Shown one piece after another: positions 25,229 through 37,249 of a DNA stretch of 38,034 nt. The DNA comes from a virus. Its lineage: Duplodnaviria; Heunggongvirae; Uroviricota; Caudoviricetes. Each line of letters starts with the position of its first letter. The first letter of the stretch is position 1. Where the stretch lies: IMG/VR virus record IMGVR_UViG_2534681658_000022, one strand, 5' to 3'. Below the pieces are notes generated by a model that was given only the letters and a program-made list of their open reading frames with translations, was not told the DNA's origin and did no database searches. Made by a program: the position numbers and the translations under genes.

Positions 25229-25882
25229 ATGAATAAATACAAACTTTTCGCACAGCTATCAAGATATTCATTTGAAGCGCAGATTGATGATTTCGAAAAA
25301 TATATCCTAGGAGCAGGCGGCCAAAACAGAGTTGACTTATCGGAATTAAAAAAAGCATATGAAGATGAAAAAAAGAATGCTCCTGACGATTATATTAATT
25401 ACTTAGAAGACTATTATTCAGAGCAATATGATTTCTTAGTTAACATACAACCAAATATTTTTAATAAATCTGCTTTGGTATCTTTATACTCATGCTTAGA
25501 GCACAACCTAAACGACTATTGCAATATATGTCAAAGGATTGTAAACACCAATATATCAGTAACCGATTTTAATGGTGATGGCATCCACAAAGCAAAAAGA
25601 TATTTAACAAAATTAATGGATATAAACTTTGGCCTGTCACAAGAGTGGCGATTCATGACAGAGTTTAACAAAGTAAGGAATTGCATAGTTCATGCTAATG
25701 GAGACATTAAAAAAATGAGCACAGCTGTAGCCTTAAAAGATATCATTGATAAAACACCTACTCTTTCATTAAACAATGAAAATAATATAATAATCTCCTT
25801 AAATTATTTAAAAGATACTATCACAAAAATTAGAAAACTCTTTCAATGGTTATATACACATCTGGATCAATCATCGAAATGA
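25229..25882 (+). CDS. Hypothetical protein with HEPN-type RNxxxH motif (candidate abortive-infection effector)
   Basis: 217-aa AT-rich ORF with TATAAT at 25203-25208 upstream. Motif RNCIVH at residues about 151-156. No recognisable phage function. Confidence 0.55.
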   Translation: MNKYKLFAQLSRYSFEAQIDDFEKYILGAGGQNRVDLSELKKAYEDEKKNAPDDYINYLEDYYSEQYDFLVNIQPNIFNKSALVSLYSCLEHNLNDYCNICQRIVNTNISVTDFNGDGIHKAKRYLTKLMDINFGLSQEWRFMTEFNKVRNCIVHANGDIKKMSTAVALKDIIDKTPTLSLNNENNIIISLNYLKDTITKIRKLFQWLYTHLDQSSK

Positions 25883-26134: not shown

Positions 26135-27001
26135 TTAGATGGCTTTGCTTCGATATTCAATTTCTAAAATCGCCTTTGTCATTGCCGCAATAGTTATAGC
26201 TTCTACCATAGTCAATTCAGGCTTGTTCAAGCTTCCGTGTCCAGCAGTAGGTAATTTGTTACGTAAATCATAAATATCTTTAACAGCATCAATAAGATTC
26301 TTAGGTAATTTTGACATTTTTTCGAACTGTTTAAAAAAACCACCCAATGACTCATTTGCCACATTCGGGTTTTGAGTGATTTCCTTAGCCATAGTTTCTA
26401 AAACATTAGAGGCTGCGTGCAGTGCACCTGCCGGATCATTATTATCCAAGCAATTATTCATTCTATCTATTTGCTGAACGATATTTGGGTGCAATCTCTT
26501 TAAGTAATCACTAGCCAATTCTTCATTGAAATTTTTGACACTTTCAAAAACATCGCAATCTAAATAAAATTTAGGATTGACTGACATCCATGTATATTTC
26601 CAATCATTTTCTAAATTATCTTTTTCCGCAATACGCCTGCCAGTGTCCTGATCTATCTCATCAACATATTTACACATATAATCGGCGTAGTAGTGTAAAT
26701 ATCTAAATGATATTTCTGGGCAAAAATTACTAACTGATGCAAGGCCGCCATATTCTTTTGTAGTAACTGTAGGGACTTCTTCATCACATAAAGATGAGAA
26801 AGTGGTTCTTTCCCAAAATTCGCCCAACTCTTTTTCTTTCCTAGTTGCCATACCAGCTATCATATTGATGCTTGAGAGCAAAACTACACTCTGATAGTAT
26901 CGAGGACATCTGTATGAACTAGCATATGGGCATATTGATGATGCTTTACGATTAATACGCTCTTTTTCCCACCAATTTTTATCAGGAATAATTCTTTGCA
27001 T
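26135..27001 (-). CDS. Hypothetical protein, Cys-rich N-terminus (uncharacterised hotspot cargo)
   Basis: 288-aa AT-rich ORF, convergent with the 217-aa gene. N-terminal cysteines (CPY...C.RYY...CPE...CKY); C-terminal region with LRNKLPTAGHG. No recognised family; the true start may be a downstream Met. Confidence 0.55.
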   Translation of the reverse strand: MQRIIPDKNWWEKERINRKASSICPYASSYRCPRYYQSVVLLSSINMIAGMATRKEKELGEFWERTTFSSLCDEEVPTVTTKEYGGLASVSNFCPEISFRYLHYYADYMCKYVDEIDQDTGRRIAEKDNLENDWKYTWMSVNPKFYLDCDVFESVKNFNEELASDYLKRLHPNIVQQIDRMNNCLDNNDPAGALHAASNVLETMAKEITQNPNVANESLGGFFKQFEKMSKLPKNLIDAVKDIYDLRNKLPTAGHGSLNKPELTMVEAITIAAMTKAILEIEYRSKAI

Positions 27002-27981: not shown

Positions 27982-28075
27982 TATATAATAATCTTACTGA
28001 TGTAAAACGTTTTTTTACGTTCATCAGCCTGATATGCCTGGTATTATTAAGAGCACGAATTGTTAATCCGCGTAA

Positions 28076-30490
28076 TTAATACAGGTTCCGCCACTTATCA
28101 TCTTCCTGTAAACGCTGATTCCGATAGAAGATACGCAGGCCAGCCCCTGACGGAATACTGCCTCCGCGAAGGAGTAAATCGACCTCTTTCTCGCTGCCAT
28201 CAAATCCTCTGGACTTCAGTTCATAGACGAGCTGCTGTCGCTGATGGTCTGTAATTCGCTGTTTGTAGTCTTTGCGCCGTTTCGGTTTCACCTGGCGTAA
28301 CCTTGCAGCCAGTTCCCGACGCTCTTTTTTGCTCATACTGTGCAGATAATCGTGCAACTCCTTGTCATCCTGGCGGGTAATGTCAGTTCTGGTGTCCCCA
28401 TCAGCTGATTTATCTTTCTCCTGTTGGTTCAAATTTTCAGCAAGGGGACAGTTATTGCCACGAGTCCAAGGGGCGCAAGCGCCCTTGTCGGCTGCCGCCT
28501 CCTGAACGTCAACGGCCTTACGAACCATTTTCCACTTCACTGCATGAGTGCAGATCTTGCCCTCTGCAATGGGTGACCAGATGCCATAAATACGAATACC
28601 GTGATCGCCATAGGCGGTCGGCTCTTCGTTGATTTCATAAGCAGTTCTGATGAGGTGATATTTGCGGGGAACCAGTACGCCGCCCTGCTTCATGATGTAG
28701 GTGGCAAAACAACCAGCATCAGCAGCAGCCAGGATTGCATCAAGGCGCGGGTTATCCAGTACCGGCGCACCTGCTTTTTTGTCCCCCTGCTGCCTTGCCG
28801 CCTGACCAGCCAGCAATCGCAGTTCACGGTAAGCCTGACGCCCCGGAATGCCAAAGAAGCGGAATTGCTGAACACGATGCAGAGACGCCCAAGCATTAAC
28901 GTATTCAGCGTTATCACGCAGGGATTTACCCGTTTCCTTGCTGATCTCGCCAGCCAGACCACGCCCGTCAATGTTCTTACTGATGTATTTCGCGATGTAG
29001 CTTGTTGGCGTACCTTTGCGCGGGTTTATCAGCTCGGACTTAAAGCGTGGTCCCGTGTTATTACCCAGCTCCTCGCGGTCTTCACGAATGGCAAACTTAC
29101 GCAACAAAGCAGTAATGGCGCGGCGATCTTTTTTGCGCATAAAACACAACAGGTGCCAGTGAACTGTACCGTCGTGATGCGGCTCAGCCACCCGCACGCC
29201 ATACCAGCGCAACCCGGCTTTGTGCATCGCCTTACGAAATGCAGCAAACATACCGACCAGATAATCACTGCTTTGTCTTACCGTCGCATTTGTCCAGGTT
29301 GGGTTGGGCCTGCCGTTATTTAGCGTGGAATGGAAACGTGACGGACAGGTGATGGTGTAGAAAACGGCGCAGTCACCGCGCATTTCCGCGATAAGCTCCA
29401 GACCTTTAACACAGGCCATCATCTCATTGCGGCGATGCGCAGGGTTGCTGCTGCTGGCGTTTACCACATCCTCCATGTCCAGCGTGTCGCCGTCTTCGTT
29501 CACCAGTTCATGAGAACGGAAAAACTCCAGCGACTTACGGCGCTGCTCACGTTTATGCATCACGGCTTCATAGCTGACATAAGGAGATGCTTTTTTGCTA
29601 ACCAGGCAGACAGCGCGCAACTGCTCTTCCCGCCATTCGCAACGCATCTTCCATAATTTCCGATACCACCAGTCGGCGCACAACATACGCGCCAGCGAAC
29701 CCGGAATGAGTTCATAGGGCACGGGTTTACGGCGGTTTCTTTTCCGACGGAGTTGCTCAAACGCAGGCGGGATAACATCCAGACGCAGGGTTTCCGCTGC
29801 CACCTTTTCCCACGTCTTGCGGATTTCTTCTGGCTTAACGTCATCGGTGGCATACAAATCACCACAAGCGGCATCAAGGCACATGCTCATATGCGCAGCA
29901 ACAAGGGTAGACAGACGCTTCACCTGATCCTGACTCATTTCAGGCAGGATCAGCAGGCCGTCCAGCCCTTCATGGCTTGCCATAAAGCGAAAAGAAGTGG
30001 ATAGCTGACAGTCGCGTACATGCTCCAGTCGTTCCAGACATGGCTTAATCGTCTCACGCAAATAGCGGGAATAAGCCTTTGGCCTGCCCAGGCTGCTGAA
30101 GTATTCAATACGTTGCATCAGCGGCTTGCTGATATGGGAAGGCTGGGCATTGACGTCCGCCAGAATGACCATATCTGGATTAAAACGCTGCTGCTCATGC
30201 GCCAGCTTTGCCCGGCTAATGAGTTTATCCTGCTCCATTTCGCGTTGGACAGGATCACGGGATTCATTAAAGAAATAACGCTCCCAGACCTGATCACTCA
30301 GTGCCTCGCGGCGCAGTTGTTCCAGCTCGTTATCGACAGCGTACAGAGTGATCAGGTTTGAAAGCGCAGAAACCGGCGCAACTTCCGCCGGGTCCAGATA
30401 AGGGTTAATGGCCTTTTTCGGGCTGTTCCATGAGAATGCTGCGGCGACCTCGTTAAAGCCGCTGCAGTTGTTCATATCAGCATGGCTCAT
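28076..30490 (-). CDS. A: Replication initiation endonuclease, P2 gpA family
   Basis: 804-aa ORF at the end of the early operon, the position and size class of the P2/186 A protein. Confidence 0.88.
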
Positions 30491-31233
30491 GCACGCACTC
30501 CGTACACGGCAGAACTATCCACTCCACGCGAAGGATCAAATCCCACCCAGCAGCGCGGCCCGGAAACAGCGATGATTTCTGTTGCAGATTTACTCTCACC
30601 AGCTGCTACGCCGATGCTGCGTTTTGCCTTGATGTAGTGGTGAGTAAAATTGCGATACAGCGAACGGATCAGGGATGTGTCACTGTTAGAAACAATGACC
30701 GGATGTCCTTCTGATGACCGATGTTCAAGAACGGATGCCAGGTGATACTGGTCATCTTCAGTGAAACCATCAGTGTGATAGCCGGAAAACGTACCGTCAT
30801 ACGGCGGATCGCAATACACCACATCCCCCACCTGCAGCATCGCCAGCGTTTCATCAAAGCTCGCGCAGATAAACGTTGCCCGCTTGGCTTTCTCTGCAAA
30901 TGCGCGAATTTCTTTTTCAGGGAAATACGGATTTTTATAATTACCGTAGGGAATATTGAAATGCCCGCTCTTGTTATAGCGACATAAACCACGGTAACCG
31001 TGACGATTGAGATACAGGAAATATACCGCTTTCATGAAATCAGTAATTTCAGTTGAGTAATTAAACTCCTGCCTTATGTTGTAATAAGCCACCTCCCTGT
31101 TTGCGATCTCAAATAAAACTCTGGCGCGAGATATAAACGATTCACAATCAGCGGCAACCTTTTTATAGAGGTTGATTAAATCAGGATTAATATCCGCAAC
31201 CAGATAACTGGGATAATCCGTCTCCATCATCAC
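30487..31233 (-). CDS. dam: DNA adenine methyltransferase (Dam-like), C-terminal frame of a frameshifted gene
   Basis: Contains the DPPY catalytic motif and [16 protein letters not shown]. The Dam-like N-terminus (MSTILKWAGNKTAIMSELKK...) is encoded from ATG 31345 in another frame and stops at about 31256 after a run of 7 A (plus-strand T7 at 31285-31291). Confidence 0.7.
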
Positions 31234-31341
31234 AGCACAGGAACCCGCGAAAGGTTCAACCAGTCGCGGGCCAGCAGGAAGATGTTTTTTTCAGTTCTGA
31301 CATTATGGCAGTTTTATTTCCCGCCCATTTCAGGATGGTGC

Positions 31342-31569
31342 TCATACAGCACCTCCGTTGTAATGTTTGCCTTTCAGCTCTGCGATTTCCTGACAGGTAA
31401 TGCAAAGCTGCACACCCGGAATGGCACGGCGGCGTGCTGGCGGAATTGGCGCTTCACACTCAATGCAAAGCACGCGGGACACGCCCGGCGTTTTGGCACG
31501 GGCAGCATGGATATGACGCTGGCGTTCTTCTTCAACGCGCTGCTGTACGAGATCCATTGCATCAGCCAT
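31342..31569 (-). CDS. TraR/DksA-family C4 zinc-finger protein
   Basis: 75 aa with CIECEAPIP...CITCQ; its stop overlaps the dam start (ATGA). Confidence 0.75.
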   Translation of the reverse strand: MADAMDLVQQRVEEERQRHIHAARAKTPGVSRVLCIECEAPIPPARRRAIPGVQLCITCQEIAELKGKHYNGGAV

Positions 31570-32757: not shown

Positions 32758-32924
32758 TTGGACTTTCTCCGTTTCCTCGTGATCAATTCAGACAGCAATT
32801 CATCTTGTGAACGGCACGGATGCCAGCGTTTACCATCCTCCCCCATGATCCAGCCGTGACCGTAGTGCATTGCCGGGCTTTGTTTTACCAGCAGCGATGC
32901 AAATGATGGTTCTTTCGTCAGCAT
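32628..32924 (-). CDS. Hypothetical early protein (downstream of cII; 3' portion possibly out of frame)
   Basis: Start set at the ATG (MLTKEPSF...) preceded by GAGGTG. The frame runs 130 nt into the next gene and its C-terminal 40 residues look non-protein-like. Confidence 0.35.
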   Translation of the reverse strand: MLTKEPSFASLLVKQSPAMHYGHGWIMGEDGKRWHPCRSQDELLSELITRKRRKSKCMRQKMKWFITFVTEGRIIQYLKMICSVAIRRCRAMVATFSR

Positions 32925-36463: not shown

Positions 36464-37249
36464 ATGGCAAAAATCGCTAAGAAGCTCACTGACACTGAAA
36501 TCAAAAGCACCAAGCCAGCCGATAAAGAAATCAACTTGTTTGACGGTGATGGTCTGATTCTACGAATCGCTCCTTTGGCGAAAGGAGGCAAGAAAAATTG
36601 GTATTTCAGGTATGCAGTACCAGTGAGCAAGAAAAGAACCAAAATGAGCCTTGGGACATATCCTCACCTTACCCTTGCAAGAGCCAGAGCCTTACGTGAT
36701 GAATATCTCTCCTTTCTGGCAAATGGTGTTGATCCCCAAATCCATAACAACGATAAGGCGAAGGCATTAAAGAGTGCTACTGAGCACACTCTCCAAGCCG
36801 TAGCGCGGAAATGGTTAGATGAGAAGGTAAAGACATCAGGTATCTCACAAGACCATGCAGCAGACATCTGGCGCAGCTTAGAGAGAAATGTCTTTCCCGG
36901 TCTGGGTAATGTCCCTATCAATGAGATCCGACCTAAGCTCTTAAAACAACACCTTGATCCTATTGAGCAACGAGGCGTATTGGAAACTCTACGCCGTATC
37001 ATTTCACGTCTGAATGAAATCTTCCGGTGGGCAGCTACTGAAGAACTTATTGAGTTCAACCCGGCTGACAACCTTGGTCAAAGATTCAGTAAACCAAAAA
37101 AGCAAAATATGCCTGCCCTTCCCCCAAGCGAATTGCCAAGGTTTATGGAATCTTTGACGAATGCGTCAATCCGGTTGGAAACACGTATGCTAATTGAATG
37201 GCAATTGTTGACATGGGTTCGTCCGGGTGAAGCCGTTCGCGCAAGGTGA
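36464..37249 (+). pseudogene. intA: P4-type (IntA-like) integrase, 3'-truncated by IS insertion
   Basis: N-terminus (TDTEIKSTKPADKEINLFDGDGLILRIAP...) and internal segment (ESLTNASIRLETRMLIEWQLLTWVRPGEAVRAR) track the CP4-57 IntA family. The frame ends in a TGA created at the IS629 left end. Confidence 0.8.

Follow-up and report, generated by a model that had tools for sequence, protein, structure and literature searches.

A prophage of the P2/186 type adjoining ssrA/smpB makes up the stretch of viral DNA analysed here (IMG/VR record IMGVR_UViG_2534681658_000022; 38,034 nucleotides (nt) over its full length, hereafter the window). It matches contig AQDL01000055.1 of assembly GCA_000354995.2 with 100% identity over 21 kb, and its host is a strain of enterotoxigenic Escherichia coli (ETEC). 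On the minus strand the prophage carries a gene for a DNA methyltransferase of the Dam family, the frame of which is interrupted at a run of seven adenines (A7). A preliminary description of the sequence had placed the Dam-like ATG at 31345, the A7 run at 31285-31291 and a stop at about 31256, and all of these positions were confirmed, the stop being a TGA at 31258-31256. The interrupted gene comprises the following features:

30487..31345, minus strand: dam pseudogene, whole extent (859 nt, compared to 858 nt of the intact gene)
31285..31291, minus strand: A7 homopolymer (plus-strand T7), the site of the +1 insertion; the wild type has A6, encoding Lys19-Lys20
31256..31345, minus strand: N-terminal remnant of 29 codons (MSTILKWAGNKTAIMSELKKTSSCWPATG) with the premature TGA at 31258-31256
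30487..31233, minus strand: C-terminal open reading frame (ORF) of 248 residues from GTG 31233 or 247 residues from ATG 31230, with ADIN and DPPY motifs

The dam gene starts with the minus-strand ATG at 31345-31343, from which the frame encodes MSTILKWAGNKTAIMSELKK, crosses the A7 run, reads on through TSSCWPATG and ends at the premature TGA. As had been predicted, a continuous frame is restored once a single A is deleted; it encodes a protein of 285 residues. The repaired 858-nt gene shares 100% DNA identity with the intact gene of ETEC strain 120899, which encodes WP_001399245.1; the extra A is the sole base difference from this allele within dam, and the gene bears no other sign of decay. 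The 29-codon stub holds the KWAGNK motif, and PFAGS is encoded in the downstream frame, past the premature stop but ahead of the internal start. The C-terminal ORF, with its stop codon at 30487-30489, consequently has neither motif X (KWAGNK) nor motif I (PFAGS), and keeps DPPY (motif IV). Direct reading of the sequence before the internal GTG and ATG starts revealed no obvious Shine-Dalgarno-like sequence.

In profile searches, the repaired protein covered the full length of Pfam PF02086 (positions 1-253), with an E-value of 3e-76 and a score of 256.8 bits (cut-off 22), and matched TIGR00571 dam with 322 bits (cut-off 114.85), so that the Dam-like match is not a chance one. Against the chromosomal Dam equivalog NF008152 it scored 286 bits, below the cut-off of 441 bits, which identifies the prophage Dam as a phage paralogue and not the host enzyme. 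The structures of E. coli Dam (PDB 2G1P, 4GOL and others) align to residues 4-263 of the repaired protein with an E-value of 6e-73, and conservation extends to DPPY, to the FxGxG loop and to the counterparts of K9, L122, R124 and P134. From this resemblance, the intact enzyme is predicted to methylate the N6 position of adenine in GATC. The same alignment puts K9/W10 (in KWAGxK) and the FxGxG loop for S-adenosylmethionine (AdoMet) in residues 1-38, which are missing from the downstream ORF. This ORF covers only positions 37-253 of the PF02086 profile, with positions 1-36 lost, and no single ORF in the window unites motif X (KWAGxK), motif I (FxGxG) and DPPY. Because the N-terminal motifs are split from the DPPY part, the locus is a pseudogene of the Dam family rather than a functional member. 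Independent translation of the downstream ORF from an internal start, which had been considered as a source of functional enzyme, is unlikely to yield a working protein, since the 247- or 248-residue product would be without the N-terminal KWAGNK and PFAGS motifs.

Comparison with homologous prophages, which the preliminary description had proposed as a check, places the insertion against an almost unchanged background. Over 36.8 kb, the window shares 99.9% identity with the prophages of ETEC 120899 (Gambia) and ETEC-2265 (Bangladesh), both of which have A6 and an intact Dam of 285 residues; short-query searches showed A6 in two further loci as well. The window differs from the two ETEC prophages at 12 sites, namely the extra A, a change in the number of hexamer repeats in gpA and 10 substitutions; apart from the in-frame change in gpA, A7 is the only indel. 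Copies of the window's prophage in at least three other data sets likewise have the A7 tract, including those of IMG/VR UViG_2529292835_000026 (IMG genome 2529292835), NCBI GCA_049980605.1 and the Logan assembly of SRR11281128. GCA_049980605.1 and SRR11281128 possibly represent one isolate, and the other A7 data sets span at least one other project. In addition, the exact 247-residue truncated product is present in 14 public contigs (24 by a second index), compared to 129 for the intact protein, and the exact 29-codon stub peptide in four, with close variants of the stub in more than 80 others.

Altogether, we take A7 to be a true allele that is inherited within one lineage of ETEC prophages. 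We propose, with a probability of about 0.8, that a genuine and inherited +1 frameshift (A6 to A7) has made the prophage dam a pseudogene, by ordinary replication slippage in a dispensable gene. Slippage of the replication machinery on the A6 run of Lys19-Lys20 would have added one A. In the present sequence, translation from the native ATG ends after 29 codons and the N-terminal motifs are separated from the catalytic core. The lost N-terminal part comprises the motifs for DNA contact and AdoMet binding (KWAGNK and EPFAGS), and the product would be inactive. The loss is probably near neutral, given that the host has a Dam of its own and that the lysogen represses the early lytic operon, and the allele would then be passed on clonally. 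The suggestion of a recent inactivating mutation is thus supported, the rest of the gene being identical base for base to intact alleles.

The tract was then compared among further copies of the gene. In 80 intact alleles from IMG/VR, obtained by a locus search that was ranked by full-length match and returned only intact copies, and which is no census, the tract is A6 in 72, interrupted (AAAAAG) in four and an in-frame A7 (CTA AAA AAA) in the remaining four. In a sample of 111 complete A6 copies from IMG/VR, every one encodes 272-288 residues, which makes the tract the main route of inactivation seen in the gene family. A pattern scan of IMG/VR for A7 to A9 returned a single contig, of the same prophage lineage, compared to at least 120 for A6, and the scan for A5 returned none. 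The A7 pattern was found neither in species-representative genomes nor in JGI metagenome contigs; the A6 pattern gave 12 matches in the species-representative genomes, including random ones in unrelated phyla.

Frameshifted tracts occur in several other sequence backgrounds. The stub peptide of an A7 allele in another background (...KKTPSCWPATG) is carried by 79 contigs, and A7 was seen in another two backgrounds. The A5 (-1) products amount to 14 distinct peptides of 37 residues in about 49 contigs, and no +2 (A8) product was found among public contig peptides. Among complete E. coli genomes, a 61-nt blastn search for the window-type A7 gave no exact match in 1,238 records, and synthetic 41-nt queries for A5 in both TCC backgrounds tested gave none. 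The main alternative A7 allele (CACC background) has an exact 41-nt match in four complete records, namely ETEC4089 (pig, Belgium), ETEC1702 (pig), A37 (cattle, China) and M2 (Russia). No clean case of A7 in the CATC/TCC background was found in complete E. coli genomes, where the one near-match, ERP001, is an error-ridden assembly. Frameshifted copies in complete E. coli genomes are thus four A7 and no clean A5 of about 1,270 (~0.3%). The prophages of ETEC4089, A37 and M2 are mutually 100% identical over 3 kb, and their dam differs from that of the window at 32 nt, so that its A7 represents an independent event. In these three annotations, which were inspected, PGAP labels dam as "frameshifted"; in M2 the adjacent gpA is flagged as frameshifted as well. 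The same defect has therefore already been annotated by RefSeq in a related prophage lineage and is of an already known kind. These data show that indels (A5 and A7) recur in the tract at a modest level, which makes it a minor hotspot rather than a dedicated switch.

Some observations nevertheless weigh against an inherited, inactivating frameshift in the window. The 10 substitutions private to the window all lengthen a homopolymer, which makes the quality of its consensus questionable, and the presence of A7 in the window's own isolate rests on agreement with the sister assemblies. Moreover, A6 and A7 occur within an otherwise identical allele and indels are seen in both directions, a pattern that low-rate ON/OFF switching would give as well, and the sequence would allow a leaky rescue of the A7 allele.

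That the isolate truly has A6 and that the extra A is a consensus error of sequencing or assembly, as the preliminary description had considered, is now largely excluded and in our view very improbable. The private substitutions (3214, 6582, 6723, 8766, 10706, 17278, 18152, 19544, 24930 and 32841) do resemble a systematic consensus error: nine of the 10 are A:T to C:G changes in GGT-to-GGG-type contexts, eight of them being A to C on the minus strand before C/CC. All six private coding changes are nonsynonymous (five Thr ACC to Pro CCC and one Tyr to Ser), and the capsid variant T300P of the window was found in no other public contig. The sister contig (IMG 2529292835) has three T-to-G-after-G changes of its own, opposite window positions 26633, 31435 and 34820. 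The private substitutions reflect either a project-specific consensus error or a mutT-like signature; a mutT-like mutator lineage as the source of the A:T to C:G changes was considered unlikely, as the window and the sister contig share none of them. Frameshifts in dam can also be plain errors, as in ERP001, where neighbouring genes are broken too. Against such an origin of A7 in the window stand the three other data sets in which the same prophage has A7; where they overlap the window, they are without its private substitution at 32841. Furthermore, none of the 14 other homopolymers of at least 7 bases in the window differs from its relatives or carries an indel, which argues against general homopolymer noise in the assembly. 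In the complete genome of ERP001 (NZ_CP063214.1 42-4282), almost all genes in the early region of the homologous prophage carry a frameshift flag, and its dam is broken up into several short ORFs; this case illustrates how frameshifts due to assembly error might pass for variation of the tract.

Slippage-prone switching, in which the Lys-Lys A-run would turn the methyltransferase ON and OFF as in the phase-variable mod genes, had also been suggested, and as a designed mechanism it finds no support here. Alleles with A5, A6 and A7 do occur in several sequence backgrounds, the exact allele of the window is OFF on 14-24 contigs and ON on 129, and the gene is otherwise intact, the tract being the main route by which it is lost. 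However, the wild-type tract is only 6 nt long, whereas known homopolymer switches usually reach at least 8 nt; with this threshold, the locus has no hypermutable repeat of switch-competent length. The tract is also interrupted or changed in frame in some of the intact alleles, A8 products were not found, and OFF alleles make up ~0.3% of the copies in complete E. coli genomes. The identity of the widespread A7 lineage, a single allele, over 3 kb indicates stable inheritance and not switching. We consider a contingency locus of this kind to be only a slim prospect, and no less doubtful is a selected low-rate ON/OFF switch, by which a Dam-minus subpopulation of the prophage would be kept and slippage on A7 would yield a trickle of enzyme. 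Were the latter true, the Dam-minus subpopulation could avoid mutagenic overproduction of Dam on induction or alter the methylation of phage DNA; high-rate switching, which the evidence does not favour, would offer an example of a phase-variable orphan methylase of a phage in Enterobacteriaceae. Full-length Dam might alternatively be made from the A7 allele by slippage of RNA polymerase on A7/T7 or by +1 slippage of tRNA-Lys on AAA-AAA-A. Both transcriptional and ribosomal slippage on A-runs are established in E. coli, and the sequence permits the latter: a P-site tRNA-Lys on the second AAA could re-pair one base downstream on AAA, after which the next codon would be CAT in the Dam frame. Nevertheless, more than 99% of the homologues keep the frame, and each of the E. 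coli and phage matches listed is one base shorter than the query, so that no conserved out-of-frame architecture was found. Besides, the codon after AAA-AAA is ACA, not a stop, and the yield expected at a 7-nt run is low, and we give such leaky expression little credence. No positive evidence for designed phase variation or programmed frameshifting was found, and a literature search yielded no mention either of this tract or of phase variation in P2-type dam.

Among known systems, the window gene has its intact counterpart in the Dam of phages and prophages of the P2/186 type, the same gene at the same place in the early operon, flanked by a TraR/DksA-like gene and gpA. The copy of ETEC 120899 and ETEC-2265 (WP_001399245.1) has A6 and is intact, whereas that of the window has A7 and is split into a stub of 29 codons and a remainder of 247 or 248 codons. 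Salmonella phage RE2010 and Klebsiella phage 4LV2017 share 96-97% identity with a 1,051-nt query that spans dam and parts of both neighbours. The name "retron EC67 DNA adenine methylase" is the source name of a member of the same 90% protein cluster. The likeness to chromosomal Dam of E. coli (PDB 2G1P, 4GOL) is that of the same family (TIGR00571, PF02086), but the window gene is broken. The dam of ETEC4089, A37 and M2 ("frameshifted" in RefSeq) and of ETEC1702 has the same A6-to-A7 insertion in the same codons of the same prophage gene, but is another allele, with its 32 substitutions spread across the gene. The phasevarion mod genes of Haemophilus, Neisseria and Moraxella resemble the locus in that the frame of a methyltransferase is set by the length of a simple repeat. 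These mod genes have long repeats, high switching rates and ON/OFF mixtures within strains; by contrast, the tract of the window dam is A6/A7 and its OFF alleles are rare, each apparently inherited clonally.

The prophage has the gene order of the P2/186 type and is colinear with annotated prophages: int, CI, apl/Rha, CII and fil, followed further on by TraR, dam and gpA, and later by the portal, terminase, capsid and tail genes, gpD and ogr, beside ssrA. Two genes flank dam directly:

31342..31569, minus strand: TraR/DksA-type zinc-finger gene, upstream of dam (annotation via near-identical loci)
28076..30490, minus strand: replication endonuclease gpA, 804 residues, downstream of dam (Pfam Phage_GPA on the same gene)

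The TGA of the TraR/DksA-type gene overlaps the ATG of dam (ATGA, 31342-31345), and the TGA of dam overlaps the ATG of gpA in the same way (ATGA, 30487-30490). This arrangement suggests translational coupling along the early operon from the TraR/DksA-like gene through dam to gpA, and premature termination in dam could then lower the expression of gpA through some polarity. However, gpA possesses a separate GGAG, located 7 nt before its ATG, and thus need not depend on the translation of dam.

Within gpA lies an in-frame hexanucleotide repeat, ACTCGG (Thr-Arg), at about 28460-28467 of the window on the minus strand. The window has one copy, ETEC 120899 four and ETEC-2265 five, giving proteins of 804, 810 and 812 residues, respectively. 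Tandem Repeats Finder reported no repeat over positions 28000-31500 of the window; at gpA this is because the window holds a single copy of the hexamer. A Septu anti-phage system (22874-24776, minus strand) is encoded in the variable region that separates gpA from the portal gene. It consists of PtuA (412 residues, PADLOC E-value of 7e-122) and the HNH protein PtuB (223 residues, E-value of 2e-82). Two further, unassigned ORFs lie beside it, at 26135-27001 on the minus strand and 25229-25882 on the plus strand. In ETEC 120899, an IS100 element (istA/istB) interrupts an integrase-like gene beside the prophage (393-2194 of its locus, corresponding to about 36833-36837 of the window); this gene is uninterrupted in the window and in ETEC-2265.

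The frameshift in dam is an ordinary one, and its biological weight is small. The annotation should mark the gene as a pseudogene instead of a 247-residue "methylase". As the site at which genes of this family were most often seen to be inactivated, the A6 run is useful to consider when methylomes are predicted from genomes. Loss of its own Dam does not, as this case shows, keep a P2/186-type prophage from persisting and spreading in lysogens, which fits redundancy with the Dam of the host.

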